This document shows, piece by piece, positions 3,679-18,412 of a DNA stretch of 20,000 nucleotides. The stretch's first letter is position 1. Each line of letters begins with the position of its first letter. The position numbers and the translations under genes are program-made. The notes beneath the pieces were generated by a model. The model did not search any database. It worked only from the letters and a program-made list of their open reading frames with translations, and was not told where the DNA came from. This DNA is from an uncultured virus (IMG/VR IMGVR_UViG_3300020048_000118) (Duplodnaviria; Heunggongvirae; Uroviricota; Caudoviricetes; Crassvirales): IMG/VR virus record IMGVR_UViG_3300020048_000118. One strand, 5' to 3'.

Positions 3679-3683
3679 TTACA

Positions 3684-3691
3684 CAAAGATA
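3684..3691 (-). promoter_or_regulatory. Bacteroidota -7 promoter box TATCTTTG, 5 nt before ATG 3678
   Basis: Exact match to TAnnTTTG; intergenic. Confidence 0.7.
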
Positions 3692-3709
3692 ACCAACTAT
3701 TGCGTTAGT

Positions 3710-3979
3710 TTACTTCTTTGTTGATTTTCCGTTTGACCCCTGCCTTGCTCGGTTTTTTGACTTATTCTCGAGCACCATCTTGCCATCTTTTTTGTGGCTC
3801 AAGTCAAGAGATTTTGAAGCTCTCTTGCCGTAGATACCTCTCTCTCGTGCCTCTGCGTTCAGCTCACTGCGATACGCTACGCGTTTCGCGGTAGACTGGT
3901 ATGCCTTCTCCTTAGAGTAGTCACGCCCTGTGGCCTTGTTACTGCCCGGCCTAGTGTTTTTCCCTGTAATCTTTGCCAT
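3710..3979 (-). CDS. Basic protein, degenerate HNH-like, 89 aa
   Basis: RDYSKEKAYQ...DLSHKKDGKMVLENKSKNRAR resembles small phage HNH-like proteins (D.SH...NRAR). Confidence 0.6.
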   Translation of the reverse strand: MAKITGKNTRPGSNKATGRDYSKEKAYQSTAKRVAYRSELNAEARERGIYGKRASKSLDLSHKKDGKMVLENKSKNRARQGSNGKSTKK

Positions 3980-4061
3980 CCAAGTACTCTCCTATAATGT
4001 ATGAAATTCCAATCGTAAAGGTAATGAATAATAGCCCGAACAAGAATCCCTCGAGCATCAT
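3951..4061 (-). CDS. 36-aa single-TM protein (MMLEGFLFGLLFITFTIGISYIIGEYLDGKDYREKH)
   Basis: Translated by hand. Start overlaps the upstream stop (TAATG). One hydrophobic segment. Confidence 0.6.
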   Translation of the reverse strand: MMLEGFLFGLLFITFTIGISYIIGEYLDGKDYREKH

Positions 4062-4207
4062 TATTTCTTCTTAGCTGTCTTCGCTGACTGTTTGAATGCT
4101 TTCGCTGTCGGTGCACCCTTGGTGCCCGGCTTTCTCATTGTCTCACCGCTACCGGCTGCAATGCGCTTCTTCTTAGCGTTAATGTTTGCGTAAAGTCCGT
4201 TTTTCAT
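4061..4207 (-). CDS. 48-aa Lys-rich phage protein (MKNGLYANINAKKKRIAAGSGETMRKPGTKGAPTAKAFKQSAKTAKKK)
   Basis: Translated by hand. ATGA overlap with the upstream gene. The GLYANI.AK..RI..GSGE.MRK motif is familiar from aquatic phages. Confidence 0.8.
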   Translation of the reverse strand: MKNGLYANINAKKKRIAAGSGETMRKPGTKGAPTAKAFKQSAKTAKKK

Positions 4208-4326
4208 CCTTGTCTGTTATATGGCTTTGAGCTGTTGTGCTTGTTAGCGTGCTTGGTGTGCCTGCGCAATTTCTTGCGTGGCTTTGCTCTGAAGGTAGAG
4301 ACGTTTGATTTTACCTTGGCCGCCAT
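4204..4326 (-). CDS. 40-aa highly basic protein (MAAKVKSNVSTFRAKPRKKLRRHTKHANKHNSSKPYNRQG)
   Basis: Translated by hand. TGATG overlap upstream and ATGA overlap downstream. Confidence 0.75.
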   Translation of the reverse strand: MAAKVKSNVSTFRAKPRKKLRRHTKHANKHNSSKPYNRQG

Positions 4327-4505
4327 CAGTTCTTTTTAAATATCCCTTTGATGTAATAGATACTTGCCAATACCCCTGACACGATTCCGATCAGGCCAAC
4401 TACCAATGAAATGATAGGCTGCCACGACGTGGCGAAAGATGCTACGGCTGCTACACCAGAGACGGTGGCAAGCGTGTTAGCTACTGAGTCAGTTTGTTGA
4501 ATCAT
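4326..4505 (-). CDS. Putative holin, 59 aa (MIQQTDSVANTLATVSGVAAVASFATSWQPIISLVVGLIGIVSGVLASIYYIKGIFKKN)
   Basis: Two hydrophobic segments and a basic C-terminus. Coupled to both neighbours and located downstream of fibre genes. Confidence 0.6.
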   Translation of the reverse strand: MIQQTDSVANTLATVSGVAAVASFATSWQPIISLVVGLIGIVSGVLASIYYIKGIFKKN

Positions 4506-4651
4506 TGCTCTAACTCTCCAAATTCTGGCTGTTCGTTTACAACTTCAATTGCCTTTACGATATTCGTAACCTCTACTAGGTTAAAGCAACCCTTTAATAC
4601 GGCTATATTCATAGCCTCGGCAATTACTTGTTTTGCTGTACTTATGTCCAT
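4502..4651 (-). CDS. 49-aa hypothetical protein (MDISTAKQVIAEAMNIAVLKGCFNLVEVTNIVKAIEVVNEQPEFGELEQ)
   Basis: Translated by hand. Fills the gap and overlaps both neighbours. Confidence 0.7.
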   Translation of the reverse strand: MDISTAKQVIAEAMNIAVLKGCFNLVEVTNIVKAIEVVNEQPEFGELEQ

Positions 4652-4968
4652 GGGAGTGGCGTATTTTCTGGTGAAACAGGTGGGTTGATCTGTGAATCGA
4701 TCTGTCCCTGGATTGACTCCTCGTAGTTGGCCACGGTGTCAGGCCCAAGTACTGACTTGATCCATCCGATAACGATATCATTTGTCAACTCTTCGTAAGG
4801 GATAAAGTTGTCTACGTTCACTGTGCTGAACATTGACGAGTCCGAGATGCTAGAAGAGTACTCTCCGTCAACACCGGTCACATCATAGTTTGCAATTACT
4901 ACATAGTCTTTCTCACCGTCAATCTCTTGAGTGAATAGCTGATTTACTGTCCAGGTATAAGTTGTCAT
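4642..4968 (-). CDS. Fibre-associated protein (possible fibre chaperone), 108 aa
   Basis: TYTWTV...FIPYEELT..IVIGWIKSVLG...QINPP...LPW pattern, commonly seen directly downstream of phage fibre genes. TAATG-coupled to the fibre gene. Confidence 0.75.
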   Translation of the reverse strand: MTTYTWTVNQLFTQEIDGEKDYVVIANYDVTGVDGEYSSSISDSSMFSTVNVDNFIPYEELTNDIVIGWIKSVLGPDTVANYEESIQGQIDSQINPPVSPENTPLPWT

Positions 4969-6800
4969 TATGCTTTTAATAAGATCTTGTATGCTGTTCC
5001 GTTAATTCTCACACTCCAAGTTGCATCAGTTACTACTGTCTCTGATGTTACTGCTCCTGCTGGAGTCCCTGTGCTACCTACTACAAATTGATTATTTGCA
5101 GTTGCTACTGCATCTTTACCAAGAATAGTAGAACCACTAAAGTTTCCCGATTGAGTATTGAAACCTAAAGCAGTATTATTGGCTCCTGATGTATTTAAAT
5201 TTAAAGCGCTCAATCCAATTGCTGTGTTACTTGCACCCGTTGTGTTTGACGATAAAGCACCATATCCTAAAGCAGTATTATTGGCTCCTGTTGTGTTTGC
5301 TGCTAGTGCAGATAAACCTACTGCAGTATTATTATTTCCTGTTGAAAGAGTTAATGCCTGATAACCTACAGCAGTGATGCCTGTTCCACTTGTGTTTGCG
5401 TTTGCCGCCTGATAACCTATTGCTGTGTTGTTAGAGGCTGTGTTTGCCGAAAGTGCAGAAGTACCTAAAGCGGTATTATTTGCTCCAGTTATGTTGTCTT
5501 TTAAAGCACTAGCACCAATTGCAGTATTACTTGATGCAGTAGTATTATTTAATAAAGCCTGATTACCTACAGCAGTATTAACTGTTCCTGTTGTATTTAA
5601 TTGAAGTGTATTAGAACCTACTGCTGTATTGTTAGATGCAGTGTTTGTTCTTAATGCTAAATAACCAAGAGCAGTAAGACCCGTCCCACTTGTATTAGTC
5701 AAAGCAGCTTCATAACCTATGGCAATGTTGTTGGATGCAGTGTTATTATATAAAGCAACAGTTCCTATAGCGGTATTATTCGCTCCTGACGTATTAGAAA
5801 ATAATGCCCTATCTCCTAGAGCCGTATTGTTATTACCCGTACTCAATTTCAACGCTTGATACCCTATCGCAGTTATACCCGTTCCAGTTGTATTGGTTGT
5901 AGCCGCCTCATAACCTACGGCTGTGTTGTTAGAGGCGGTATTGCCTTGTAAAGCACTAACACCAAACGCAGAATTATTACTTCCCGTAAAGTTGTTAAAA
6001 GAAGCGTTTACACCTATGGCAACATTATTAATACCAGTTGAGTTTCTAAATGCTGACCAATAACCTACTGCCGTATTACTATTACCTGTTGAATTACGTA
6101 ACGCTTGATAACCTATTGCTGTAAGGTTTGTTCCAGCCGTATTGGTAATAAGAGCACTATCGCCAAATGCCGTGTTTCCTGCTACGCTACCGCCACCTAA
6201 ATTGAAAACACTACCCGCATCATTTACTTGCAAACTTGAAAGTCCCGCACTATTCTGCACCAAAAGCGATGTCGTGGCGGATGTTGATCCGCTGCCTACT
6301 ACCTGTAATTTAGCCGTACCCGTAATTGTATTGATACCTACGTTTCCTGTACTCCTTTTAATAAATACAGTCGTACTCAACAAAGTTCCTGCATCATTAT
6401 AAGCACGTACAGCAAAATCACTACCTGCATTAGAACCACTTTCAGCAGTATTGTTAACGTATAATCCGAATCTTTGTAATCCTGCTGTACGATATGTGAT
6501 AATTTTACTCTGTCCTGCATCACCATCCATTACCATGCGTGTAGTAGCAGCAGTGCTTTTAAGATGTAAAATACCTAAAGGAGTAGTAGTACCAATCCCC
6601 ACCCTTTTATTGGCGTTGTCCCAATTCAAGCCAGTTGCCCCACCGATCTGCAATGCAGTGGTGGAGATGCTAAGCATTGTATCGTTTCCGGCACCGTCAG
6701 ATAGTGCCTTTAATGATGCTGAAAGTGCAGCGTTGTCTCCAAACTTTATTAACCCAGAGTATGTGTTCTGAGGAAGTAATCCGATTAAACTTGTTCCCAT
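4968..6800 (-). CDS. Fibre/adhesin with about 14-aa NNTA(I/V/L)G..AL..NT(T/S)G beta-roll repeats; probable start 6800 (610 aa)
   Basis: More than 20 tandem repeats. The start was moved from 6875 to MGTSLIG because a TATCTTTG box lies 4 nt upstream of it and a separate ORF occupies 6818-6958. Confidence 0.85.
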   Translation of the reverse strand: MGTSLIGLLPQNTYSGLIKFGDNAALSASLKALSDGAGNDTMLSISTTALQIGGATGLNWDNANKRVGIGTTTPLGILHLKSTAATTRMVMDGDAGQSKIITYRTAGLQRFGLYVNNTAESGSNAGSDFAVRAYNDAGTLLSTTVFIKRSTGNVGINTITGTAKLQVVGSGSTSATTSLLVQNSAGLSSLQVNDAGSVFNLGGGSVAGNTAFGDSALITNTAGTNLTAIGYQALRNSTGNSNTAVGYWSAFRNSTGINNVAIGVNASFNNFTGSNNSAFGVSALQGNTASNNTAVGYEAATTNTTGTGITAIGYQALKLSTGNNNTALGDRALFSNTSGANNTAIGTVALYNNTASNNIAIGYEAALTNTSGTGLTALGYLALRTNTASNNTAVGSNTLQLNTTGTVNTAVGNQALLNNTTASSNTAIGASALKDNITGANNTALGTSALSANTASNNTAIGYQAANANTSGTGITAVGYQALTLSTGNNNTAVGLSALAANTTGANNTALGYGALSSNTTGASNTAIGLSALNLNTSGANNTALGFNTQSGNFSGSTILGKDAVATANNQFVVGSTGTPAGAVTSETVVTDATWSVRINGTAYKILLKA

Positions 6801-6804
6801 TGTA

Positions 6805-6812
6805 CAAAGATA
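6805..6812 (-). promoter_or_regulatory. -7 box TATCTTTG, 4 nt before ATG 6800
   Basis: TAnnTTTG match. Confidence 0.75.
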
Positions 6813-6817
6813 ACAAT

Positions 6818-6958
6818 TTAACAGACATTCCACGGAGTGGAGACAGAGCTCCAAGCAACCGAAGATAATTCCCACGCAGTATTAGCAAAGCAAGATCCTG
6901 GAGGATAAGATCCAACAAGGCTAGCCCTTCCTACGTATATCCCTATCGATATGATCAT
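6818..6958 (-). CDS. 46-aa protein (MIISIGIYVGRASLVGSYPPGSCFANTAWELSSVAWSSVSTPWNVC); possible spike-base-binding adaptor
   Basis: Translated by hand. Starts 1 nt after the spike-base stop. Alternating hydrophobic N-terminus and a W-x6-W-x6-W tail. Confidence 0.6.
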   Translation of the reverse strand: MIISIGIYVGRASLVGSYPPGSCFANTAWELSSVAWSSVSTPWNVC

Positions 6959-6959
6959 C

Positions 6960-7217
6960 TTACCAAAGGGCTACGATGCTTGTCGCACTTGTTCCTGTAG
7001 CGTACACACGTGTAACGTTTACTGGGATAAAAGAACCACCAAGTACACCGGTAAATGTAACTGTATCTCCGCCAATTGTGTCAACGGTCAAGTCACCAGA
7101 ACCACCTACGTACAATACGCAGCCATTGTTGCTGGTGCCTCCAGATACTGATGGAATGTCTACTGTGTTTGATGGAGTTACCGCAGCGGCACGTCCAGCT
7201 TGTAGTTTAAAATTCAT
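6960..7217 (-). CDS. Head spike base-like protein (RcGTA Rcc01079-like), 85 aa
   Basis: AAAVTPS...LYVGGSGDLTV...GGDTVTF.GV..GSFIPV.VTRVYATGTSATSIVALW matches the family pattern as I recall it. Confidence 0.75.
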   Translation of the reverse strand: MNFKLQAGRAAAVTPSNTVDIPSVSGGTSNNGCVLYVGGSGDLTVDTIGGDTVTFTGVLGGSFIPVNVTRVYATGTSATSIVALW

Positions 7218-7221
7218 ATTG

Positions 7222-7229
7222 CAAATATA
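7222..7229 (-). promoter_or_regulatory. -7 box TATATTTG, 4 nt before ATG 7217
   Basis: TAnnTTTG match. Confidence 0.75.
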
Positions 7230-7257
7230 ATGATATTATACGACTCTGTCACATAAT

Positions 7258-7419
7258 CTACTTCTTGGTGTCTTTTGAGTAAGGCACCAGCTTGTTCAGC
7301 TTTTCCTGCCTCACGTCGCAACCGCAATTCTCTCCGAAGATGCTCTTTACCAGCATCTCGATGCCGGTGGCCTTGGTAATGGCGGCTACGGTGTCGCCCA
7401 ATCCCTTTTGCTTGTCCAT
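7258..7419 (-). CDS. 53-aa phage protein (MDKQKGLGDTVAAITKATGIEMLVKSIFGENCGCDVRQEKLNKLVPYSKDTKK)
   Basis: Translated by hand. The GLGDT...TKATGI...CGC..R.EKLN motif is familiar from phages. Preceded by TATTTTTG-N4-ATG. Confidence 0.8.
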   Translation of the reverse strand: MDKQKGLGDTVAAITKATGIEMLVKSIFGENCGCDVRQEKLNKLVPYSKDTKK

Positions 7420-7423
7420 GTAA

Positions 7424-7442
7424 CAAAAATAGGCTAAATTTG
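7424..7442. promoter_or_regulatory. Back-to-back -7 boxes: TATTTTTG (minus, 7424-7431) and TAAATTTG (plus, 7435-7442)
   Basis: Both match TAnnTTTG, and each points toward one gene of the divergent pair. Confidence 0.65.
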
Positions 7443-7486
7443 TTAATCTTTTCGTACCAAAGGTACGACAAGATTACTAAAATTAG
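7434..7486. repeat. 53-nt imperfect inverted repeat (operator or leader hairpin)
   Basis: Core TAATCTT-T-TCGTACC-AAA-GGTACGA-C-AAGATTA (7444-7476). The symmetry extends to 7434/7486 with few mismatches. Confidence 0.75.
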
Positions 7487-7492
7487 ACTCAA

Positions 7493-7960
7493 ATGGACTC
7501 AATTGAAATGGCCCGGTACGTCAGGTACCTGCCGATTATTAAAAGACTTTACATGGAGAAGTATGACCTGTCCTCCACACAGGTCGATATCCTGATCTTC
7601 ATCCACGGTACACGGACATTCCGCCTAAGAGTGCTGTACGACTTCGCGTCTACCATGAAGTGGCAGGCAAGGCTCTTCTCGGACATGAAGTCTCGTGGAT
7701 TTATTAAGTTCCACAAGGACTCGTCCCGTAAGCTCGGTGTTATCTACCAGTGCTCTGTCAAGACAGACAAGATAATGAAGGAATTGTTTGATCTGGTACT
7801 AGAGCAGACCAAGTTCTCAGATGATCCTGCTGAGAACCCGATCCACAAGAGAGAAAATTACACGCAGAAGTACCACTCCCTTTTCATGAAGAGGATCAAT
7901 CTAGAACGAGAACAACGTCCCGCTCAAGTATTATATGATACTGACGACTCTGAATTCTAA
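7493..7960 (+). CDS. Putative winged-helix (MarR-like) DNA-binding protein, 155 aa
   Basis: KYDLSSTQVDILIFIH...FSDMKSRGFI...GVIYQCSVKT resembles a wHTH. It is the only plus-strand gene in the late arm, and its 3' end overlaps groES by 65 nt. Confidence 0.6.
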   Translation: MDSIEMARYVRYLPIIKRLYMEKYDLSSTQVDILIFIHGTRTFRLRVLYDFASTMKWQARLFSDMKSRGFIKFHKDSSRKLGVIYQCSVKTDKIMKELFDLVLEQTKFSDDPAENPIHKRENYTQKYHSLFMKRINLEREQRPAQVLYDTDDSEF

Positions 7961-8159
7961 CGCCGTGGCCAGCGCGTCTATCGTAGTATACGATAGACTC
8001 ACTCGCTATGTCAGATACAACATCCCCGCCCACGTGTACTACGTGGGCCTTGCCGTACCTGAGCTCGTTCTCATCGTCGTTTGTCATGATCAGACCTGAC
8101 TGAGACTTGGTCTCCTCAAATATCGGATCAATCACGATGTACTTTCCTATAGCTCTCAT
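7896..8159 (-). CDS. groES: Co-chaperonin GroES (cpn10), 87 aa
   Basis: MRAIGKYIVIDP..EETKSQSGLIM (mobile loop)...VVHVG...IILERDVVLV. ATGA-coupled to groEL. Confidence 0.85.
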   Translation of the reverse strand: MRAIGKYIVIDPIFEETKSQSGLIMTNDDENELRYGKAHVVHVGGDVVSDIASESIVYYDRRAGHGVRIQSRQYHIILERDVVLVLD

Positions 8160-9727
8160 TTTGCTCTTACGTTAGTAATGATACAGTTGGTGCTCAAGAT
8201 CGTTGTTGCAACGCTGACAGCGTTCTCCAGAGCACTCTTGGTAACCTTTAGCGGGTCGATGATGCCCATCTCGATCATATTTCCTACAACACCCTCTTTC
8301 ACGTCGAAGCCGTAACCGAAACTATTTTGATAGTTTAGGGCAATGTCACCCTTTACCTCGTTCGGGTCATACCCGCCGTTCTCTAGGATCGTGTTGAATG
8401 GCTGCTGCAGTGCGTACTTGATGATGCTCTTAGCTGTAGAGCATCCGCAGATCTCACCGGCTATGTTCAGCAAAGCAATACCACCACCAGGCAGAATTCC
8501 GCCCTCCATCGCTGCCTTGGTCGCATACACTGCGTCCTCGACACGGTCCCTCTTCTCCTTCATCTCGACATCGCTCTGCGCTCCGACGTAGATAACGCCA
8601 ACGCCGCCCGCAAGGTTAGCGAGCCTCTCCTCCAAGAACTTCTTCAGTCCCTCGTTGGTAGCCTCTGCCAAGTTATTGCGGATGCCCTCAATCCTCATCG
8701 ATAGATCGTCAGACAGATCGTTGTCGGTGATAATGATCGTAGACTCCTTTCCGACCACCACCTTCTGGGCATGGCCCAGGTCGGTGAATGATACAAGTCC
8801 TAAATTGTCTCCGGTTCCGTCAGAGATGAATCGTGCTCCGGTAGCGGCAGCGATGTCCTCCATGATCTCGGAACGCATCTGCCCGAAGCTCGGTGGAACG
8901 ATGGCGCATGCTTTGATCACACCCTTGAGCCTGTTAAGGTTGAGTGAGTTCAGTGCGTTCTCCGACATCTCGGCGATAATAAGTATGCTCTTTCCGCTCT
9001 GCACCACTGGTGCCAAAAGGTGCTCGATATTGTTCAATGACGTGATCTCCTGGTCAGAGATTAAGATGTAACAGTCCTCTAGGATCGCCTCGTTCTTCTT
9101 CTGGTCCGTCACGAAGTACTTTGACATCCATCCGCGCCCAAGCTTCATGCCAGATACCACCTCAGAGTAAGTCTTTGAGCTTTGAGACGTCTCAACAGTT
9201 ACCACACCGTCTTTACCGACCATGCTGTAAGCGTCTGAAATGATCTGCCCTAGTTCTGGGTCATTGTTGGCGGAGATCGTGGCTACAGAGGCCATAGAAT
9301 CGTCTGTAACGGGGATAGCCATGCTGTCCAATGCCTGTGCAACTGACAGTGCTAGCTCTTTTACCTCTCTCAACACCTTTGTTGGGTTGTCCTCGGCCTT
9401 CATAAACTGCTGTGAGCCATGAATCAGACCCTGTGTTAGCACAATCGAGGTAGTGGTACCGTCACCAGCAGCTGTTGCCGTCTTCTCGGATGCCTCTTTT
9501 ACCATTTGTACCGCAAGGTTCTGCGTTGGGTCGTCCAAAACAATGGACCTTGCAACACTTACACCGTCTTTTGTGATGTGGATACCGTGTGTGTACTGGT
9601 CTGACTCGATCAGAACGGTCTGTCCACGTGCACCCAAGGTGCTCTTGACGGCATTTGCTATAATGTCTATACCAGACACTAGCTTTTCACGGGCCTCGGC
9701 CCCAAATTCAACTTGTTTAACGATCAT
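8156..9727 (-). CDS. groEL: Chaperonin GroEL (cpn60); probable start 9727 (523 aa)
   Basis: Motifs AVKSTLGARG, ITKDGVSVA, AGDGTTT, VATISANND, ERLANLAGGVGVIYVGA, DRVEDA, GIIDPLKVTKSALENA. No GGM tail. The ORF-track start at 9787 would run through a terminator and a promoter. Confidence 0.97.
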   Translation of the reverse strand: MIVKQVEFGAEAREKLVSGIDIIANAVKSTLGARGQTVLIESDQYTHGIHITKDGVSVARSIVLDDPTQNLAVQMVKEASEKTATAAGDGTTTSIVLTQGLIHGSQQFMKAEDNPTKVLREVKELALSVAQALDSMAIPVTDDSMASVATISANNDPELGQIISDAYSMVGKDGVVTVETSQSSKTYSEVVSGMKLGRGWMSKYFVTDQKKNEAILEDCYILISDQEITSLNNIEHLLAPVVQSGKSILIIAEMSENALNSLNLNRLKGVIKACAIVPPSFGQMRSEIMEDIAAATGARFISDGTGDNLGLVSFTDLGHAQKVVVGKESTIIITDNDLSDDLSMRIEGIRNNLAEATNEGLKKFLEERLANLAGGVGVIYVGAQSDVEMKEKRDRVEDAVYATKAAMEGGILPGGGIALLNIAGEICGCSTAKSIIKYALQQPFNTILENGGYDPNEVKGDIALNYQNSFGYGFDVKEGVVGNMIEMGIIDPLKVTKSALENAVSVATTILSTNCIITNVRAK

Positions 9728-9744
9728 ATTTGATTTAATTTGTG

Positions 9745-9752
9745 CAAATATA
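9745..9752 (-). promoter_or_regulatory. -7 box TATATTTG for groEL-groES (17 nt before ATG, A-rich leader)
   Basis: TAnnTTTG match immediately downstream of a terminator. Confidence 0.75.
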
Positions 9753-9780
9753 AACAAAAAAGGGACCATTGGCCCCCTTT
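9753..9780 (-). terminator. Intrinsic terminator
   Basis: Minus strand reads AAAGGGGGCC-AAT-GGTCCCTTTTTTGTTT. Confidence 0.75.
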
Positions 9781-9799
9781 CTGTCAAATTGTCGTAAAA

Positions 9800-9925
9800 T
9801 TACTTCTTTTTAGTGATTACACCCTTGGCAATCAATACATCTTTCTTGGTTACCTTGCCGTCCTTGTTCATGTCAGGGAAGGATTTCTTCGCAGCCTTTC
9901 CGGCGCTCTTCATTACTTTTTTCAT
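9800..9925 (-). CDS. 41-aa basic protein with EF-hand-like loop (MKKVMKSAGKAAKKSFPDMNKDGKVTKKDVLIAKGVITKKK)
   Basis: Translated by hand. D-x-N-x-D-G-x-V-T-x-x-D loop. ATGA-coupled. Confidence 0.75.
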   Translation of the reverse strand: MKKVMKSAGKAAKKSFPDMNKDGKVTKKDVLIAKGVITKKK

Positions 9926-10095
9926 TTCTTTTTTATTTTTATAGTGTCAGTTGCAACAGCCTTTACAAAGGTTCTGTTCTTGCCCTTTGGCTTTAAGTTC
10001 GGATCTCTTGTGATATTAAACGCAGCAACGCTGTCCTGGTAGCTCTTTGACGGTGCACTCAATTTGTACACGTTTGTCTTCTTTGGAGGAGTCAT
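9922..10095 (-). CDS. 57-aa basic hypothetical protein (...KKTNVYKLSAPSKSYQDSVAAFNITRDPNLKPKGKNRTFVKAVATDTIKIKKK)
   Basis: Translated by hand. TATCTTTG-N4-ATG upstream. Confidence 0.7.
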   Translation of the reverse strand: MTPPKKTNVYKLSAPSKSYQDSVAAFNITRDPNLKPKGKNRTFVKAVATDTIKIKKK

Positions 10096-10099
10096 AGTA

Positions 10100-10107
10100 C
10101 AAAGATA
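10100..10107 (-). promoter_or_regulatory. -7 box TATCTTTG, 4 nt before ATG 10095
   Basis: TAnnTTTG match. Confidence 0.7.
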
Positions 10108-10108
10108 A

Positions 10109-10696
10109 TTATAAATCTTTACTCTCGATCAATGTGTACGTGAAGCTGTTCCCATGCATCTTGGCCGATTTCTCGACAATAACCATGAATGCAGCGAAAT
10201 CTTTTATTCTCTTGAACACTTGGCATCCATGCGACCATTCGCCAATAAGGACGGAGTCCGCTCCAGCATGGTGGATATTGATACCATCAAGGTTGCTGTC
10301 AACGATCTTGTCTGTGTCGTACTCTAGATCCTTGTCGGCGTCCCTGTACAAGCGTAGCTTTCCCTTCTGCTTCAACGCACGGTACTTGCCTTGGTGTAGT
10401 CCAATCATGTGGCTACCCGGATATTGTCCCGGCACAACTCTCGCAGTTCCTCGTCCGTTATTTCCACGAAGCATTGGATCCTTTCCTGGGTCCGTGGTCG
10501 CAGACCAACTGAAGAACTTCCATACACCGCCGTCCTTGTAAGAGATCGTCATCCAATCGTCAAAAGCGTTAGTAACTGCGTTACCAACAGTTGAATTTCT
10601 GATACCAATAATGTTGACGTTGAAGTCTCCATTCTCAAAATACTTGTGACCCAATTTATAGCAAGCAGCCATGACGGTCTCTCTTGTTAGCTCCAT
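10109..10696 (-). CDS. Putative endolysin, L,D-transpeptidase (YkuD)-like Cys peptidase, 195 aa
   Basis: NIIGIR...NAFDD...TTDPG...GINIHHAG...WSHGCQV contains the His...S-H-G-C catalytic signature. Confidence 0.7.
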   Translation of the reverse strand: MELTRETVMAACYKLGHKYFENGDFNVNIIGIRNSTVGNAVTNAFDDWMTISYKDGGVWKFFSWSATTDPGKDPMLRGNNGRGTARVVPGQYPGSHMIGLHQGKYRALKQKGKLRLYRDADKDLEYDTDKIVDSNLDGINIHHAGADSVLIGEWSHGCQVFKRIKDFAAFMVIVEKSAKMHGNSFTYTLIESKDL

Positions 10697-10700
10697 GGAT

Positions 10701-10708
10701 CAAAGATA
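10701..10708 (-). promoter_or_regulatory. -7 box TATCTTTG, 4 nt before ATG 10696
   Basis: TAnnTTTG match. Confidence 0.75.
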
Positions 10709-10760
10709 AGAAAACTTGATCAATCAGCACGGAGACATGAAAAACGTCTCCATACCGATA

Positions 10761-10970
10761 TGTCGATTTTCGGTGTCTCTACTCTATATATATAAAAACT
10801 GTATTCTATATATATTTTTTTTTATTACTAATGAACAGAGAAAAAACGACACAAAAGAAATAAGATATTAAAGATCAATTAGTTAACCCATGTCACCTAC
10901 AGTGTCACTTTAAGTAGAATCGACACTTGTCAACACAAAACCGACACTTGTCCACAAATATCGACACAAA
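10761..10970. repeat. Origin-like non-coding region: AT-rich tract plus CGACAC iterons and DnaA-box-like 9-mers
   Basis: CGACAC at 10847, 10921, 10942 and 10962. TTGTCAACA at 10927 and TTGTCCACA at 10948. TATATA and poly-T tracts at about 10784-10832. Confidence 0.55.
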
Positions 10971-10994
10971 AAAAGAGCTTTTTAGGGCTCTTTT
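10968..10994 (-). terminator. Intrinsic terminator, possibly bidirectional
   Basis: AAAAGAGC/GCTCTTTT stem with a T-tract on the minus strand, downstream of gene 11016-11189. Confidence 0.7.
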
Positions 10995-11015
10995 AATTAA
11001 GGTGGTCGAATTTTA

Positions 11016-11189
11016 CTACTTACCGCAGCTGCCTTTCACCTTCATGTTGTCCTTCATCTTCGATGCCATTGTCATGGCTTCTGCCATCATCATGGTCTTT
11101 TTCATCTGCTTCATCTGTGACTTGGCCTCGGCCATTTTAGCAATGCCAGACATCTGTGGTGGCATCGGATTGTTTAGTGGTTTCTTCAT
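11016..11189 (-). CDS. 57-aa Met/Lys-rich protein (MKKPLNNPMPPQMSGIAKMAEAKSQMKQMKKTMMMAEAMTMASKMKDNMKVKGSCGK)
   Basis: Translated by hand. Promoter box at 11194-11201 and a terminator downstream. Confidence 0.75.
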   Translation of the reverse strand: MKKPLNNPMPPQMSGIAKMAEAKSQMKQMKKTMMMAEAMTMASKMKDNMKVKGSCGK

Positions 11190-11193
11190 AATG

Positions 11194-11201
11194 CAAAGAT
11201 A
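11194..11201 (-). promoter_or_regulatory. -7 box TATCTTTG, 4 nt before ATG 11189
   Basis: TAnnTTTG match. Confidence 0.7.
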
Positions 11202-11205
11202 GGGA

Positions 11206-11340
11206 CTACCACATGAACGTGATACGGAAGAAAAGTAAGTTTATGTCGATCTCGTTTGTCTCTCCGGGGTAGTTAGACTCAAAGTACTCGATCCCAAGTA
11301 AGATCGCGTCCGGTACAAGTAATGATATTTCTATAGCCAT
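11206..11340 (-). CDS. 44-aa protein (MAIEISLLVPDAILLGIEYFESNYPGETNEIDINLLFFRITFMW)
   Basis: Translated by hand. TATATTTG-N4-ATG upstream. Beta-strand-like pattern with a terminal Trp. Confidence 0.65.
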   Translation of the reverse strand: MAIEISLLVPDAILLGIEYFESNYPGETNEIDINLLFFRITFMW

Positions 11341-11344
11341 GTGG

Positions 11345-11352
11345 CAAATATA
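11345..11352 (-). promoter_or_regulatory. -7 box TATATTTG, 4 nt before ATG 11340
   Basis: TAnnTTTG match. Confidence 0.7.
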
Positions 11353-11459
11353 GATATAAGGCGCCAGACTTATAAGTGCCAATTATCAACCTACAGGTTA
11401 ATAATCGACCATGTGGTTTATACCTATGAGTATAATACCAGGAACTAGATATGCTGAGG

Positions 11460-11640
11460 TTTTGGGTAATACCCCCATATTGCGTCACGCCGGCCGCGGG
11501 GAAAACCGATTATTTTTGCCCCATGGGTTGTCGGTGTGTCGGCCTTGCCCCAAATTTTTGGCCTTTTGCCCGTGCGCTCCGCATGGGCTAACAGCCCGCC
11601 CGCTCCCTAGGTGGGCGCCCCGTCATGCTAAGGAAACTGC
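11460..11640. other. GC-rich non-coding segment at the strand switch; possible genome terminus or packaging site
   Basis: Abrupt GC rise, G/C runs alternating with A/T runs, and short palindromes (GGGTAATACCC, GGGCTAACAGCCC). Lies between the divergent arms. Confidence 0.4.
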
Positions 11641-11793
11641 GGAAACGCTCAGAGTTTCCATTACACCCCGCACATGGTCGCATCATGAATCTGCCATCTG
11701 TAAGGCCTTGATAGTCACTTGCGATAATCCGTACAAGGTTTTCAAATCAGTTGCGAAAATCCGTAAACAAAGTTGAAAATAAATGTTGACATG

Positions 11794-11825
11794 TTTGGTG
11801 TTGTCAACAATCGGTCGTAACATTG
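11794..11825 (+). promoter_or_regulatory. Early promoter TTTG-N20-TAACATTG
   Basis: Bacteroidota -33/-7 architecture with one mismatch in the -7 box. The same layout recurs at 12617 and 14456. Confidence 0.7.
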
Positions 11826-11849
11826 TATTGTAATAAAACACAAACGGAT

Positions 11850-12116
11850 ATGATAAACTACAGCAAATTGATGAGCCACAACCCTACCTCTTATGGGGTA
11901 ATGATGAACGACAAAGGACAGCAGATTGAGTTCTTCGAGCACCCAACATTGGGAGACGAGAGCGACATCATCTGCGCTTGCCACGAACTACAAGTAGCCG
12001 ATTACTCGGGCTTCTACGAGACTGACGACATGATTGCTGAGCACGGCGAATATCAGCCATGGTTCAACGAGGACGGCCAGTTGCAAATGGGAGAACTTGG
12101 GAGCCCAAACGAATAA
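11850..12116 (+). CDS. First early gene; acidic hypothetical protein, 88 aa
   Basis: ATG 11850 follows an A-rich leader downstream of the promoter (MINYSKLMSHNP...). Confidence 0.8.
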   Translation: MINYSKLMSHNPTSYGVMMNDKGQQIEFFEHPTLGDESDIICACHELQVADYSGFYETDDMIAEHGEYQPWFNEDGQLQMGELGSPNE

Positions 12117-12183
12117 GGTTAACTGACGAGTCCTAAATGGACGAAACATGGGTGAGCATAGCGAACTCATCCATGTCTTAACC
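12117..12183 (+). ncRNA. Hammerhead ribozyme type I (HH1); predicted cleavage after C12177
   Basis: GGTTAA-CTGACGA-GTCC(TAAAT)GGAC-GAAA-CATGGGTGAG(catagcgaa)CTCATCCATG-TC-TTAACC. Complete core, three stems and a GUC triplet. Confidence 0.95.
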
Positions 12184-12197
12184 AAAACAACAACGAT

Positions 12198-12416
12198 ATG
12201 AACAACAATCAAAAATCATCAGCAGACCACATCATCGAGCAACTAAAGTCAATTGACATTGATGGAGAGACAATGGAGTACATCATCAACGGAGTTGGCA
12301 TGAGTTATCAAATGCTAAGACAATTGATAATAAATTCAAGCGACTTTGACATCAACAACATCATCTCAGAGAGGGATGAAATTCACGACCAAGGAAGAAA
12401 CAAGCATTTAGGTTAA
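12198..12416 (+). CDS. Hypothetical protein, 72 aa, bracketed by two hammerheads
   Basis: In the ORF track. Its stop codon TAA forms part of HH2 stem I. Confidence 0.8.
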   Translation: MNNNQKSSADHIIEQLKSIDIDGETMEYIINGVGMSYQMLRQLIINSSDFDINNIISERDEIHDQGRNKHLG

Positions 12417-12464
12417 CTGATGAGGTCTTAATGACCGAAACGGGGCTCACGCCCCGTCTTAACC
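12411..12464 (+). ncRNA. Hammerhead ribozyme type I (HH2); predicted cleavage after C12458
   Basis: GGTTAA-CTGATGA-GGTC(TTAAT)GACC-GAAA-CGGGGC(TCAC)GCCCCG-TC-TTAACC. Confidence 0.95.
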
Positions 12465-12477
12465 AAAAAACATAGAC

Positions 12478-12606
12478 ATGAAATATTACATCCAAGACAA
12501 CATCGACGAAACGAGAATGCCCGTAGTGTTCGACAACCACAGCGACGCGCTCGACTACATTTTCGACAATGACCTAACAATGACTCACGAAATAATTGCA
12601 GAATAA
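12478..12606 (+). CDS. 42-aa acidic protein (MKYYIQDNIDETRMPVVFDNHSDALDYIFDNDLTMTHEIIAE)
   Basis: Translated by hand. A-rich leader directly after HH2. Confidence 0.75.
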   Translation: MKYYIQDNIDETRMPVVFDNHSDALDYIFDNDLTMTHEIIAE

Positions 12607-12616
12607 CGAAAATAAA

Positions 12617-12648
12617 TTTGCATAATACGTATATTATAACTAACATTG
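12617..12648 (+). promoter_or_regulatory. Early promoter TTTG-N20-TAACATTG
   Basis: Same boxes and spacing as 11794-11825. Confidence 0.7.
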
Positions 12649-12671
12649 TGAACACTTTAATAACAAACGAC

Positions 12672-13388
12672 ATGAATACACCACAAACCCTCATCGCACA
12701 CTTGCGTAACGCTGAAACAAACCACATCGGTTTCTCTTACAACATCAACACGGGCGACCACAACCCCGACCAAGGCTTCATGGTATCTATCAAGGGATAC
12801 GAGGAGACGGCTCCAAGTGGTTGCGACCTTATCGCATTCGGTAGGTCTTACTTCTTGCGCCATGCCGAGCATTTGGCCAACCCGAACTACTACATGGGAT
12901 GTTGGGTCAATGCGGGACGATTTGTCTTTGACATCTCAGAGAACGTACAGACCAAGGAGGTCGCCATCGTTCTAGGACAGCACCATGACCAAGAGGCCAT
13001 ATGGGACTGCGCTAGTGGGTCAGAGTACAGATTAATGAGAGAGGGAGACGAGCCAAGCCAAAGGCTCGAGGAGTTGAGAGAGGCTCTTAGGTCTGAGTCA
13101 ATTAGTTATGGCGAACTTGCAGAACTTCAGTCATTGTCAGAGCACATCGACAAGGACGACGTAGAATTGCTATTTGCCTCGGGGCTTGCAGAGTTCGAGT
13201 CAGACGAGAAGTCATTGGGCGACTACACAGATGCCGACTTCGATGCCATGCTACACACATTGGACGTGGCGATGGACGAGTTCTCTCAAATCTACAACCA
13301 CTCAGCCTCGAACGACTTCCGAGAGTACTACGAGATTCACATGACCCAATTGGACAACATCATCAACCTAATCAACAAACTAAAATAA
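12672..13388 (+). CDS. Multi-module early protein (238 aa from ATG 12672); N-terminal domain possibly SAM-lyase-like, acidic C-terminus
   Basis: GFMVS...YMGCW...FDISE...AIVLG...QEAIWD domain followed by a RLEELR...ESISYGELAELQSL module. Start placed downstream of the promoter. Confidence 0.75.
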   Translation: MNTPQTLIAHLRNAETNHIGFSYNINTGDHNPDQGFMVSIKGYEETAPSGCDLIAFGRSYFLRHAEHLANPNYYMGCWVNAGRFVFDISENVQTKEVAIVLGQHHDQEAIWDCASGSEYRLMREGDEPSQRLEELREALRSESISYGELAELQSLSEHIDKDDVELLFASGLAEFESDEKSLGDYTDADFDAMLHTLDVAMDEFSQIYNHSASNDFREYYEIHMTQLDNIINLINKLK

Positions 13389-13702
13389 TGAAATACAACG
13401 TAGTAATTAGCAGAACCTACGCCACAGAGTTGGTAGTAGATGCAGAGAACATCCAAGAGGTACATGATTGGTTAGAATCCAACAAGGAGACCATCAACTA
13501 CCAAGAGTTGGAGCAGTGCAACATCATCGTCGAGGACACCAACATCGAGTTGGTCAGCCCAAGCCCGAACGAGGCAAGCGAACTGCAAGACCTAGTATGG
13601 CACATCAAGGGCAAGTTAAAAGAGTACAGCCACGTCGAGGACTTCATCCCCAAGGATTTGTACAAGGCCTTGGAGCAGATGCTCGGACACGACGAGGACT
13701 AA
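13388..13702 (+). CDS. Acidic hypothetical protein, 104 aa
   Basis: TAATG-coupled. MKYNVVISRTY...VVDAE pattern typical of small phage early proteins. Confidence 0.8.
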   Translation: MKYNVVISRTYATELVVDAENIQEVHDWLESNKETINYQELEQCNIIVEDTNIELVSPSPNEASELQDLVWHIKGKLKEYSHVEDFIPKDLYKALEQMLGHDED

Positions 13703-13747
13703 CCAATAAAGGAAACGAGAGGGGTTCAATTCCCCTCATTGGTTCAA
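13701..13747 (+). ncRNA. tRNA-like minihelix (T-arm plus acceptor-stem mimic)
   Basis: AACCAAT-[11 nt]-GAGGGG-TTCAATT-CCCCTC-ATTGGTT-CAA. Has a T-loop but no D or anticodon arm. Intergenic. Confidence 0.65.
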
Positions 13748-13764
13748 ATTAAAATCAAATAGAC

Positions 13765-13977
13765 ATGAACAACAAAAACTTTATCACCGACTCTTGCCTA
13801 TCATGGCACGCCAATGACATGCGAAATGCAATTGAAATGGCCAACGGAATTCCTCCATCATTAAATGATGAGGACTGCAATCAGATGTTAACAAAATTCT
13901 TTTCAGAATATAGACAAACAATCATTGGTGAAATAAATGAACTTATGGTTATATGGGTTAAAGAAAACAAGATATGA
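13765..13977 (+). CDS. Hypothetical protein, 70 aa
   Basis: In the ORF track. A-rich leader and ATGA coupling downstream. Confidence 0.75.
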   Translation: MNNKNFITDSCLSWHANDMRNAIEMANGIPPSLNDEDCNQMLTKFFSEYRQTIIGEINELMVIWVKENKI

Positions 13978-14243
13978 ACATACAAACAATTTACTCAAGA
14001 CAAAAGTCAGCGGGCGTTGACTACATGCAACGACTCATCAACAACGGCTCGGTTTGGAAGATGGAAGGCTCAATGGGACGCGAGGCAATGCGACTGCTCG
14101 AGATGGGCATCTGCATGCTACCAAAGAAATCATTCACCGACTACTACGGAAACGTCATCCCATCACGGGACGATTTGAAAGGATGCACAAAGGGAACGTA
14201 CGCCAACGCTGTAAGGTACTGGTCTAATGGATGGGAGGACTAA
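13974..14243 (+). CDS. Conserved phage early protein, 89 aa
   Basis: MQRLINNGSVWKMEGSMGREAMRLLEMGIC fits the recurring Q.LI..G..W.L.G..GR.A..L.E.G.C motif. Confidence 0.8.
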   Translation: MNIQTIYSRQKSAGVDYMQRLINNGSVWKMEGSMGREAMRLLEMGICMLPKKSFTDYYGNVIPSRDDLKGCTKGTYANAVRYWSNGWED

Positions 14244-14245
14244 TC

Positions 14246-14443
14246 ATGAGCAATTTAACTGCACTACAACTTCGCCAGTTCCTCAATGAGATTGAGGCAG
14301 ACGGAAACGACCTATCTCTCATCGAGATAAACTTCAGACATGACGAGGACTCAGACGTAATACCAATCAACTTTGTGTTCGAGGACTTGCACGACGAAAA
14401 CAATAGCATGCTCACATCAATTGTGCTATTAAATGACAATTAA
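14246..14443 (+). CDS. Acidic hypothetical protein, 65 aa
   Basis: ATG 14246 lies just after the previous stop (MSNLTALQLRQFL...). Confidence 0.75.
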   Translation: MSNLTALQLRQFLNEIEADGNDLSLIEINFRHDEDSDVIPINFVFEDLHDENNSMLTSIVLLNDN

Positions 14444-14455
14444 ATGACAAATAAA

Positions 14456-14487
14456 TTAGGTTATACACAAGATAGTAACTAATATTG
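14456..14487 (+). promoter_or_regulatory. Early promoter TTAG-N20-TAATATTG
   Basis: Same spacing as the other two early promoters, and the same AAATAAA upstream as 12617. Confidence 0.6.
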
Positions 14488-14502
14488 TACATGCAAAACG
14501 AT

Positions 14503-16930: not shown

Positions 16931-17100
16931 CAAACATACAAAAAACTGGACTAAAAGAGCATATTGAATGGCTCAAAAAACAATACCAAGAAAGTATCAA
17001 TAATGGTTATAGCCAAAGTGTAATTACTGCTTTCCGATTGTCCATAAAACACGCTAAATTAATGCTTGAGAACGAAACCTACGGAGGAGGTGAGCAATGA
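16927..17100 (+). CDS. Cassette gene 2, 57 aa (MTNIQKT...ENETYGGGEQ)
   Basis: Frame from the ORF track; start at the ATGA overlap. Confidence 0.8.
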   Translation: MTNIQKTGLKEHIEWLKKQYQESINNGYSQSVITAFRLSIKHAKLMLENETYGGGEQ

Positions 17101-17327
17101 CAAACAATAAAAAACAAACTCCAGTGAAATTAATCATTGAAGCCTTGGACATTGAATGCAAATCAAGAGGTATGAATGTAAATTGGGATATGTATTTAGA
17201 AATGGAGAAGCAGGAGATGATTGAATTTGCTAATGATTTATTGGCACAAAATGACACCAATTATACTGGAGTGCCGAATTTAGCAGAACAATACTACGAA
17301 CAAACCTACGGAGGAGGTAACAAATGA
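17097..17327 (+). CDS. Cassette gene 3, 76 aa (MTNNKKQT...EMEKQE...AEQYYEQTYGGGNK)
   Basis: In the ORF track; carries the family motifs. Confidence 0.85.
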   Translation: MTNNKKQTPVKLIIEALDIECKSRGMNVNWDMYLEMEKQEMIEFANDLLAQNDTNYTGVPNLAEQYYEQTYGGGNK

Positions 17328-17527
17328 TAATAACTATTAACAGAACTAACGAAGAAAGACAAACTGCAATTGTAACAATTGACACAAAGTCTTGTAATTA
17401 TACTTATGCTATTAGAGAAGCACTTGAATTAGCATTAAAACTTGATGGATATAGTAATGATACTATTGATGAAGTTTTTGAGAGAAACCAAGATTGCAAA
17501 AAGGAGGCGAGCAATGACAAACAATAA
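17324..17527 (+). CDS. Cassette gene 4, 67 aa, unrelated interior
   Basis: In the ORF track. Reads through the junction repeat in another frame (...EASNDKQ). Confidence 0.75.
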   Translation: MIITINRTNEERQTAIVTIDTKSCNYTYAIREALELALKLDGYSNDTIDEVFERNQDCKKEASNDKQ

Positions 17528-17705
17528 ACAACAACCAAACGCATACTTAATATTCTTTTTATCATTGATATTTATATATTTAATGGTATCATTTGGAGTA
17601 TGGGATTTCAACCCATCTCATTGGGATAAAGCATTAAGAATGACATTTGCATTTGTTGCACCTATAATGGCTATGATGTGTGTAGCATTTACCAAAATAA
17701 ATTGA
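17514..17705 (+). CDS. Cassette gene 5, 63 aa, two-TM (MTNNKQQPNAYLIFF...WDFNPSHW...)
   Basis: Start placed at the repeat ATG 17514. Confidence 0.8.
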   Translation: MTNNKQQPNAYLIFFLSLIFIYLMVSFGVWDFNPSHWDKALRMTFAFVAPIMAMMCVAFTKIN

Positions 17706-17711
17706 TATAAA

Positions 17712-18035
17712 ATGACAAACAATAAACAACAAACGGAGATTAATGCAGTTGAGTACCTTGATAAGGTTAATCAATTTGCAAAGGAAAACAACACGGGTAA
17801 GCCAAAACAACAAACTGCAATTGAGTGGTTGGAACAAGAAATGTTAAAACCAAATTTAAGTATGAAAGAAATACTTGAACAAGCCAAAGAAATGGAGAAG
17901 CAAATGACAATAAAACTTTACGCTGATTATGAAAATTATTTAGAAGAAGCATTCAAAAACCAATGCGGTGGTCAAGCGGTGATATTGTCATTTCAAGAAT
18001 TTTACGAACAAACCTACGGAGGAGGTGAGCAATGA
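17712..18035 (+). CDS. Cassette gene 6, 107 aa (two KQQT motifs, AKEMEKQ, YEQTYGGGEQ)
   Basis: In the ORF track. Confidence 0.85.
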   Translation: MTNNKQQTEINAVEYLDKVNQFAKENNTGKPKQQTAIEWLEQEMLKPNLSMKEILEQAKEMEKQMTIKLYADYENYLEEAFKNQCGGQAVILSFQEFYEQTYGGGEQ

Positions 18036-18412
18036 GCCTTGACTTAAACAAACTTGAAAACAAACTTGACGAAGCATTAATTAAGGAAACAACTGAAACA
18101 CTAACTAAATTTTTAAACGATAAAAGAATGACAAACAATGAACAACAAACAACACTGCAAATTTTAATCAATGGACTTATTGATAGAAAGAAAAACATAA
18201 TTGAAAATGCAGACAGTATGCCTAATGATATGCTTGAAGGCGGTGTTATGGCATTTGAAAGTGCTATTGACTTAGCGCAATCTTTGCTTCAAATGGAGAA
18301 GGAAAGAATTATTGATGCTCATTATGAAGGGCAATGCAATCAAACTGAAGGGTATCCTTTACAAATAGCAGAACAATACTATAACGAAACATACGGAGAT
18401 GACAAACAATAA
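18032..18412 (+). CDS. Cassette gene 7, 126 aa (32-aa leader fused to an internal MTNNEQQT unit)
   Basis: In the ORF track. Internal repeat at 18128. Confidence 0.85.
   Translation: MSLDLNKLENKLDEALIKETTETLTKFLNDKRMTNNEQQTTLQILINGLIDRKKNIIENADSMPNDMLEGGVMAFESAIDLAQSLLQMEKERIIDAHYEGQCNQTEGYPLQIAEQYYNETYGDDKQ

Follow-up and report, generated by a model that had tools for sequence, protein, structure and literature searches.

Two hammerhead ribozymes that bracket a single small gene in the DNA of an uncultured freshwater tailed phage are best read as cutting a polycistronic transcript into linear single-gene mRNAs, a reading to which a probability of roughly 0.7 is assigned here. The pair lies in a rightward operon of small genes, on the plus strand of the stretch analysed, which is 20,000 nucleotides long and is referred to below as the window. 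The first ribozyme, HH1, occupies positions 12117-12183, with self-cleavage predicted after C12177, and the second, HH2, occupies positions 12411-12464, with self-cleavage predicted after C12458. As judged from their bases and modelled folds, both are genuine, active-looking type I hammerheads, and on the evidence of their sequences they belong to a large, compact type I subfamily of phages. Among the possibilities raised by an earlier, sequence-only reading of the locus, protein-free processing of the early polycistron is the best supported; it is also the reading put forward in a published study (PMC3088659). Cleavage in vivo and its benefit are what we infer from the observed motif, fold, family, covariation, and placement of the two copies.

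In the proposed mechanism, the upstream gene of each unit would end at or inside the first ribozyme bases, the RNA would cut itself after GUC while still being transcribed, and the next gene would start 19-20 nt past the cut on an unstructured, A-rich leader. Upstream pieces would end in a stable stem III hairpin with a 2',3'-cyclic phosphate, and downstream pieces would begin with a 5'-OH and a short A-rich leader. The gene between the two ribozymes, designated gene X, would be freed as its own 281-nt mRNA, with its stability and translation uncoupled from those of its neighbors.

The elements of a type I hammerhead can be read directly from both copies. In HH1, stem I pairs GGUUAA with UUAACC, and the core CUGACGA is followed by a stem II of GUCC/GGAC with the loop UAAAU, by GAAA, and by an 11-bp stem III that leads to GUC and then to UUAACC. 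Stem I and its flanks are as in HH1 in the second copy, where the core is CUGAUGA, stem II is GGUC/GACC with the loop UUAAU, and GAAA precedes a stem III of 7 bp that is unlike that of HH1 in sequence and is again followed by GUC. The features that identify a type I core, namely CUGA(C/U)GA, GAAA, and an A-U pair closing stem III, are present in HH1 and HH2 alike, and the cleavage triplet is GUC, with H17 = C, in each. Three helices surround the core, stems II and III being closed by loops and stem I being open. The earlier description of two complete type I hammerheads is thus borne out base for base by the sequence, the folds, and the covariance model introduced below, as is, by the sequence, its statement that stem I is the same in the two copies while stems II and III differ and nevertheless pair.

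Folded alone, HH1 and HH2 adopt the three-way junction as both MFE and centroid structure (z -4.28 and -3.68, respectively), and 0 of 200 shuffled controls fold as well. HH2 and 57 phage relatives were used to build a covariance model, R1, from which HH1 was left out. HH1, outside the training set, scores 58.3 bits against this model (rough E ~1e-17), and HH2, as a training member, scores 64.0 bits by construction. Both are aligned end to end by R1, which finds exactly two copies over the 20-kb window, the next best match reaching 10.7 bits. The distance from HH1 to HH2 is 294 nt, with one gene bracketed, in a window that also carries phage structural genes.

The Rfam hammerhead models, with which the sequence-only reading had proposed to check its call, give sub-threshold scores only. 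A scan of the window in gathering mode returned no match. In E-value mode, HH1 scores 25.5 bits against RF00163 (Hammerhead_1; gathering score 34) and 27 bits against RF03152 (gathering score 56.3), and the top Rfam hammerhead score of HH2 is 16 bits, against RF02275, for which the gathering score is 52. Because the core and helices of HH1 and HH2 are perfect, the shortfall is a limitation of the seed models and not of the two motifs. The curated thresholds of Rfam miss a common compact subfamily of phage hammerheads.

The genes around the ribozymes are arranged in close register with them. Gene A (11823-12116, plus strand; 97 aa from TTG 11823 or 88 aa from ATG 11850 in the list of open reading frames) ends in a TAA stop at 12114-12116 that abuts HH1. 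The predicted HH1 cut would give a 5'-OH end to the A-rich leader of gene X (12178-12197, plus strand, 20 nt), a segment whose sequence contains no Shine-Dalgarno motif. Gene X itself (12198-12416, plus strand) is listed as an ORF of 72 aa to which no function is assigned, and its TAA stop at 12414-12416 falls inside stem I of HH2. Past the second cut, a 19-nt A-rich leader (12459-12477, plus strand) precedes ORF Y (12478-12606, plus strand; 42 aa in the same list), so that the next ATGs stand at 12198, 20 nt past the HH1 cut, and at 12478, 19 nt past the HH2 cut. The product of double cleavage is predicted to span 12178-12458. All of the coordinates involved hold against the sequence and the list of open reading frames, both for the earlier claim that each ribozyme begins at a stop codon and cuts 20 or 19 nt before the next AUG and for the claim that cutting twice would free a one-gene RNA of 281 nt. 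A conserved gene, gene B (12672-13388, plus strand; 238 aa from ATG 12672), lies farther downstream, and genes A and B frame a variable, hammerhead-punctuated block.

Gene A matches the PHROG family phrog_11770 (E 8e-12) and has relatives in 7 viral contigs, with identities of 98%, 94%, and 66-70%. Gene X is a real gene; 29 homologous proteins of ~72 aa have 63-100% identity to it, none of them named, and Pfam and PHROG searches with gene X gave no match. ORF Y has a weak match to phrog_11909 (E 3.5e-4). In the wider window, the minus strand from 3 to 10696 encodes a tail fibre, virion proteins, a GroEL-type chaperonin, and an endolysin-like protein, and the plus strand from ~10927 carries many small genes without assigned function. 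No terminator-like site was found on the plus strand between 10500 and 12800, and therefore genes A, X, and Y are probably co-transcribed. BLASTN of positions 10700-14500 against 50,697 phage records gave no DNA-level match; the sequence of the window is present at >=99% in contigs of two aquatic-metagenome DNA runs (X1 and X2) of one study.

Scans of viral contigs place HH1 and HH2 within a family of similar elements. In the first scan, the 5' strand of stem I and the core motifs were fixed, and at least 129 viral loci were found. Of the 134 distinct matches listed, a strict parser accepts 89, inspection by eye identifies another 25 as hammerheads that contain a bulge or mismatch, and the other 20 are look-alikes in coding sequences. 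In the second scan, stem I was left free, and the fixed positions were those of the core, the pair that closes stem II, and two loop U's; 136 of its 143 distinct matches parse as type I hammerheads. Stem I in this second set is diverse and covarying, with GGUUAA the commonest variant. As this variant accounts for just 18 of the 136 when stem I is free, the idea of stem I as a universally invariant sequence was rejected. The length of stem I is exactly 6 bp in 134/136, its outer pair is G-C in 129/134, and an unpaired A is found directly 5' of it in 133/134 and directly 3' of it in 134/134. Stem II is a 13-nt hairpin of 4 bp and a 5-nt loop in 116/130 (first scan, among the matches listed), and across the family this loop mostly begins and ends with U. 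Stem I has no internal loop in HH1 and HH2, and the A/A flanks of stem I are the putative docking site for loop II, in a tertiary contact of the kind that gives fast cleavage at low Mg2+.

Covariation points to the same three-helix structure. Over 58 aligned members, 99.9% of cells pair and compensatory changes are seen at 13 of 16 pairs, although for stems I and III the pairing percentage is partly circular because the parser that pre-selected the rows demanded that these two stems pair. When the partners are slid by 1-3 columns as a control, just 33-36% of cells pair, and the covariation score falls from 0.908 to 0.06-0.11. Stem II is the unbiased part of the comparison because only its closing pair was selected; taken alone, 99.6% of its cells pair, and 3 of its 4 pairs covary.

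The family is also regular in its position with respect to genes. Among the matches listed in the first scan, the stop codon of an upstream ORF with 40 or more codons ends 0, 1, 6, or 10 nt into the motif in 83/113, that is, just before stem I, as a UAA in stem I, or as a UGA in the core. Likewise, an ATG that opens at least 30 codons is found 16-29 nt past the cut in 98/109 (same scan, among the matches listed). With both stop and ATG in fixed positions, the ribozyme is therefore a self-contained stop-cut-start unit, and HH1 and HH2 fit the family placement exactly. A literature search with limited coverage of subscription papers found no description of this compact subfamily. Five related or family contigs carry 3-4 hammerheads each, in a single cluster of 0.8-2.1 kb. 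Such a number of copies per phage, all in one small cluster, is odd for a general mRNA-processing device.

If the transcript is processed as proposed, the benefit is more likely to lie in uncoupled stability or stoichiometry than in the unmasking of start sites. For the leader and first 12 nt of gene X (12178-12209), the predicted unpaired probability is 0.72 in uncut RNA and 0.82-0.89 in cut RNA, and for the leader and first 12 nt of ORF Y, predicted accessibility goes from 0.81 uncut to 0.88 cut. As these predicted changes are small, cleavage as a means of unmasking start sites was rejected. Other observations count against processing. In an uncut context of 798 nt, the predicted equilibrium probability of stem I is 38% for HH1 and only ~1% for HH2, the latter because of a competing helix. 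Moreover, one contig that represents a relative in an RNA library spans an HH2-like hammerhead uncut; this contig may be carried-over DNA.

The contigs that carry relatives of gene A provide a view of how the block between genes A and B varies. R1 finds 4 hammerheads in the contig designated L130, 3 each in L131 and L136, and 1 in L135, with none in the more distant relatives L132-L134. The gene A protein encoded in L130 is 98% identical to that of the window. A hammerhead follows gene A in the window, in L130, and in L131, and between genes A and B these three differ in their small genes, with hammerheads at the joints and with DNA homology that breaks inside the ribozymes. HH1 is chimeric with respect to L130, sharing stem II with the second copy of that contig and stem III with the fourth, and stem III of HH2 is common to the first copy of L131. 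The window, L130, and L131 have 9 hammerheads between them, all with the same stem I. One hammerhead of L130 sits inside a homologue of gene B and splits the gene into two ORFs. Residues 1-127 of gene B are 91% identical to an L130 ORF that ends in the UAA of stem I, and residues 176-238, the C-terminal 63, are 84% identical to the second L130 ORF, which starts 18 nt past the cut.

Whether relatives gain or lose ORF-plus-hammerhead units, as the sequence-only reading had suggested checking, is answered in the affirmative. Units do differ between the same flanks, but gene X travels without its ribozymes. Relatives of gene X are encoded in 13 viral contigs, and within 1.2 kb of them no hammerhead is present; the sole hit is a 21-nt partial one of 16.4 bits. 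The suggestion of a mobile "ribozyme + gene" cassette finds no support in this comparison, and a fixed cassette of gene X plus two ribozymes was rejected on the same 13 contigs.

The mosaic structure of the block is the main source of a different explanation, in which the hammerheads are a recombination module or selfish punctuation cassette. Short patches of homology, made up of the segments that are conserved (stem I plus core, GAAAC, and GUC plus stem I plus leader), would be where phages swap small genes and the main reason why the hammerheads persist, the stop-cut-start unit would be insertable between or inside genes at no cost, and cleavage would be real but permissive. The varied small genes between A and B, with hammerheads at the joints and homology breaking inside them, favor this explanation, as do the chimeric hammerheads seen against the L130 and L131 copies, the splitting of a homologue of the 238-aa gene B, the confinement of copies to a single variable stretch of 0.8-2.1 kb in each contig, and the distant relatives that lack hammerheads altogether. 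It is nonetheless unlikely as the principal account of the locus. Core positions, exact stem lengths, and A/A flanks are strictly conserved in hundreds of diverged copies, which argues for selection on catalysis itself, and the narrow range of the spacing to the ATG (16-29 nt) points to a role at the RNA level. Conservation also weighs on the possibility that HH1 and HH2 are inactive look-alikes that fail to cleave at cellular Mg2+ because a short, open stem I lacks the usual loop-loop contact. Consistent with inactivity are a stem I of just 6 bp with no internal loop and scores that fall short of the Rfam thresholds. Core conservation across the family, strong covariation, the near-invariant A/A flanks (133/134 and 134/134), and the 58 bits that HH1 attains with a model built without it all speak for functional ribozymes, making inactivity highly improbable. 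Within the preferred reading of transcript processing, recombination retains one explanatory role. Stems I and leaders are identical between HH1 and HH2, whereas stems II and III are unrelated, a pattern consistent with recombination and concerted evolution acting on the longest of the conserved stretches. The identical stems I are best explained by concerted evolution or recombination at conserved segments and not by a need for the excised RNA to re-form a ribozyme.

Two further explanations turn on how the excised RNA folds. In the MFE structure of the 281-nt piece, positions 12216-12228 (plus strand) pair with the 5' strand of HH2 stem I and its core in an 11-bp competing helix (duplex -15.4 kcal/mol). 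This could make HH2 a conditional switch, its 5' half held by 12216-12228 until ribosomes on gene X open the helix and allow it to cut. The helix lowers the equilibrium probability of HH2 stem I to ~1%, and its duplex energy has a z of -2.39 against shuffles. The family gives no sign of such a design, however. Over 114 hammerheads (first scan, among the matches listed) there is no trend, the mean z being -0.1 with 6% below -2, and a general "anti-hammerhead" complement in upstream ORFs was rejected for that reason. In addition, gene X is rich in AUCAUC-type codons, which complement the UGAUGA core by composition, and no relative compared has the same arrangement of gene plus hammerhead. The complementarity of 12216-12228 is probably a chance match, and the switch is very improbable. 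The other explanation is that the excised RNA becomes a coding circular RNA, its 5' UUAACC pairing with the GGUUAA of HH2 and its ends then being joined, either through reversal of the hammerhead reaction or by an RtcB-type ligase of the host, into a circular mRNA for the 72-aa protein. The geometry described in the sequence-only reading is correct at the level of bases. The new 5' end is complementary to GGUUAA of HH2, and with identical stems I and A/A flanks, the excised RNA therefore carries a full hammerhead in permuted form. A stem I common to every one of the 9 copies in the window, L130, and L131 also favors a circle, as does the HH2 core's sequestration in the predicted fold of the excised RNA, which would protect it from being cut again. 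Tandem type I hammerheads of metazoan retrozymes are reported to give circles through RtcB (PMC7229834), and the possibility is already named by Perreault et al. (PMC3088659). Against a circle, the helix needed to close the ring is predicted to be occupied at only 5e-5 in the excised RNA (ddG +6.1 kcal/mol), because the 5' half of HH2 pairs with 12216-12228, and a hammerhead that did re-form would cut the circle again. Matching stems I are no rule in the family either. In the 21 contigs with at least 2 parsed copies, which were unselected on stem I (4 further groups with fewer than 2 distinct parsed copies were dropped), the 3' strands of stem I are identical in 10 and different in 11, so that re-formation is not the selected function or a requirement of the family. 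Relatives of gene X in 13 viral contigs have no hammerhead nearby, and RtcB (PF01139) was not found in 5 viral contigs that carry hammerheads, including 2 with a completeness of at least 97%; an RtcB-type enzyme of the host is possible. Perreault et al. also searched for circular or spliced RNAs arising from tandem hammerheads and report that they detected none. A coding circle at this locus is accordingly very improbable. A broader form of the proposal, in which doubly cut RNAs are re-closed at least as minor species into exonuclease-resistant coding circular mRNAs, with the helix at 12216-12228 silencing the ribozyme inside, is conceivable because every hammerhead copy in the phage lineage keeps the same stem I and A/A flanks, but it has just as little likelihood.

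Sequencing data and the literature were also searched for circles. Twenty sequencing runs were listed for the sequence, one of them RNA (share 0.09), with data in the form of contigs. The contigs of four runs (X20, RNA; X1, X2, and X4, DNA) contain no joint from 12458 to 12178; the RNA run does not cover gene X, with no cover over 12204-12404. Joints in run X4 that appear to "go back" were rejected as RNA circles, as they represent a relative's DNA arrangement like that of L130. No paper showing circular RNAs from phage hammerheads was found in a literature search with limited coverage of subscription papers. The coding circular RNA of the sequence-only reading finds no support here, with stems I that match in 10 of 21 contigs, a closing helix at ~5e-5, and no RtcB in 5 contigs.

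Tandem hammerheads that bracket a single phage gene are a layout known since 2011 (PMC3088659), and the locus leaves the general picture unchanged. Its value is as a clean, compact example for testing why phages keep ribozymes, the purpose of self-cleaving ribozymes in bacteria and phages being described as still undefined in a 2019 review (PMC6765202). It offers two perfect ribozymes, one small gene between them, a defined stop/start geometry, and close relatives in which other sets of genes lie between the same flanks. The regularities of the family, including the 6-bp stem I with A/A flanks, the built-in stop, the ATG at 16-29 nt, the single variable cluster, the chimeric joints, and the gene-splitting copy, are handles for experiments on mRNA punctuation and mosaic gene exchange.

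Comparison with known hammerheads brings out both resemblances and differences. HH1 and HH2 have the same catalytic core as RF00163 and clan CL00010 and the same topology with stem I open, but RF00163 anticipates a stem III of very few base pairs and mis-aligns the one in HH1, which has 11. RAGATH-1 (RF03152) is likewise associated with phages and resembles type I, its stem I being short and AU-rich, and it provides the top-scoring Rfam alignment over the full length of HH1, at 27 bits. In RAGATH-1, stem II is minimal and the loop of an upstream hairpin pairs with the ribozyme, whereas the ribozymes described here have a regular 4-bp stem II. Identity with RAGATH-1 or pseudoknot hammerheads was rejected, given 27 bits against the required 56.3 and a putative upstream hairpin with non-standard pairs.

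Metazoan and plant retrozymes and viroid-like RNAs (PMC7229834, PMC5680766, and PMC7761336) resemble the locus in having two direct-repeat hammerheads ~300 nt apart and an excised piece, here a predicted one, with 5'-OH and 2',3'-cyclic-phosphate ends and a permuted hammerhead. In contrast to the repeated, mobile, non-coding elements of those sources, the unit here is a single-copy, protein-coding phage gene, and HH1 and HH2 differ from each other in stems II and III. No sign of reverse transcription or of a retrozyme-like repeat family was seen. A parallel in placement comes from type I hammerheads of RNA viruses, which also fill a small intergenic UTR and cut a few nucleotides before the next start codon (PMC13725137). 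Those belong to eukaryotic RNA viruses and are given an IRES-like role, whereas the present pair is found in a DNA phage that uses bacterial translation. The same paper describes type I hammerheads as otherwise DNA-encoded in bacteria, phages, and metazoans, and PMC7761336 likewise has them DNA-encoded in bacteria and phages.

The system most like the present one is that of Perreault et al. (2011, PLoS Comput Biol; PMC3088659). In the prophages and phages of that study, hammerheads occur in clusters on either side of single genes or short gene blocks; cleavage in vitro was shown for three tandem arrangements, a tandem set was expressed from a plasmid in E. coli, and the authors proposed a role in mRNA processing. 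In both cases, several hammerheads on the same strand bracket varied small genes in phage DNA, and the same two hypotheses, single-gene mRNAs and spliced or circular products, were considered there. What may distinguish the pair described here from those clusters is that both of its members are type I, with a 6-bp stem I and A/A flanks and a 4-bp stem II with a 5-nt loop, and that the stop codon and the spacing to the next start are built into the unit itself.

The architecture of stem I is stringently constrained across the hammerhead family. Among the ribozymes sampled from it (L137-L268), the length of this stem is exactly 6 bp in 134 of 136, and an unpaired A stands on either side of it (133/134 on one side and 134/134 on the other). 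The corresponding flanking positions in the window, on the + strand, are 12116 and 12184 for the first hammerhead, HH1 (12117-12183), and 12410 and 12465 for the second, HH2 (12411-12464). Loop II, 5 nt long, may dock at these two A flanks. In a few family members (L138 and L137, which lie on one contig, L169 and L248), a second copy of the stem I 5' strand lies a few bases downstream of the 3' strand, so that, judging from these sequences, the new 5' end of the cut-off mRNA could fold into a small hairpin; this copy is absent from both hammerheads of the window.

The remaining stems are combined in varied ways among close relatives. Comparison of the window's two hammerheads with those of the closest relatives' viral contigs, L130 (3295-5126) and L131 (3271-4764), reveals that HH1 carries the stem II of one L130 hammerhead and the stem III of another, and that the stem III of HH2 also occurs in an L131 hammerhead whose stem II differs. 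Such chimerism suggests, at the level of sequence comparison, that recombination between relatives has occurred at the conserved core segments. In L130, the closest relative, a hammerhead (5060-5126) interrupts the homologue (4679-5627) of the window's 238-aa gene (12672-13388). The N-terminal 127 residues of this split gene terminate at the UAA of the hammerhead's stem I, and a second open reading frame, starting 18 nt past the cut, differs in its middle region while having its C-terminal 63 residues in common with the window gene.

An 11-bp complement between positions 12216-12228, within the 72-aa open reading frame, and 12411-12423 (z of -2.39 against shuffles) can sequester both the stem I strand and the core of HH2. 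As no trend toward a competing complement of this kind is found in the hammerhead family, this one is probably a chance match. Also probably without meaning is a weak and partial match of the RAGATH-17 model (RF03095) to 12441-12490, a segment running from stem III of HH2 through the leader into the beginning of the following open reading frame; the match reaches 25.3 bits where the gathering score is 102.3, and it lacks the 52 central positions of the model.

Two contigs of a relative from an RNA sequencing run (X20) cover this region. One (window 11417-12158) carries the relative's version of the gene upstream of HH1, then a hammerhead as far as 8 nt of its stem III, where it switches, about 5 nt ahead of the predicted cut, to other letters that we take to be sequencing adapter. 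The other crosses an HH2-like hammerhead uncut. Because each is a single contig, neither is treated as evidence of transcript ends.

Elsewhere, the window encodes a full-length GroEL-type chaperonin (8156-9787, - strand; PF00118, E 4e-59; phrog_5725, E 2e-138). The hammerhead-led genes have no Shine-Dalgarno-like site, unlike the genes of 17060-18400, where a near-identical stretch of about 25 nt containing GGAGGAGG, situated at the end of the preceding gene, precedes those starting at 17097, 17324 and 18032, with a partial version at the gene at 18399. The genes here resemble a family of small paralogues arranged in tandem, whose conserved C-terminus appears to double as a Shine-Dalgarno-like site.
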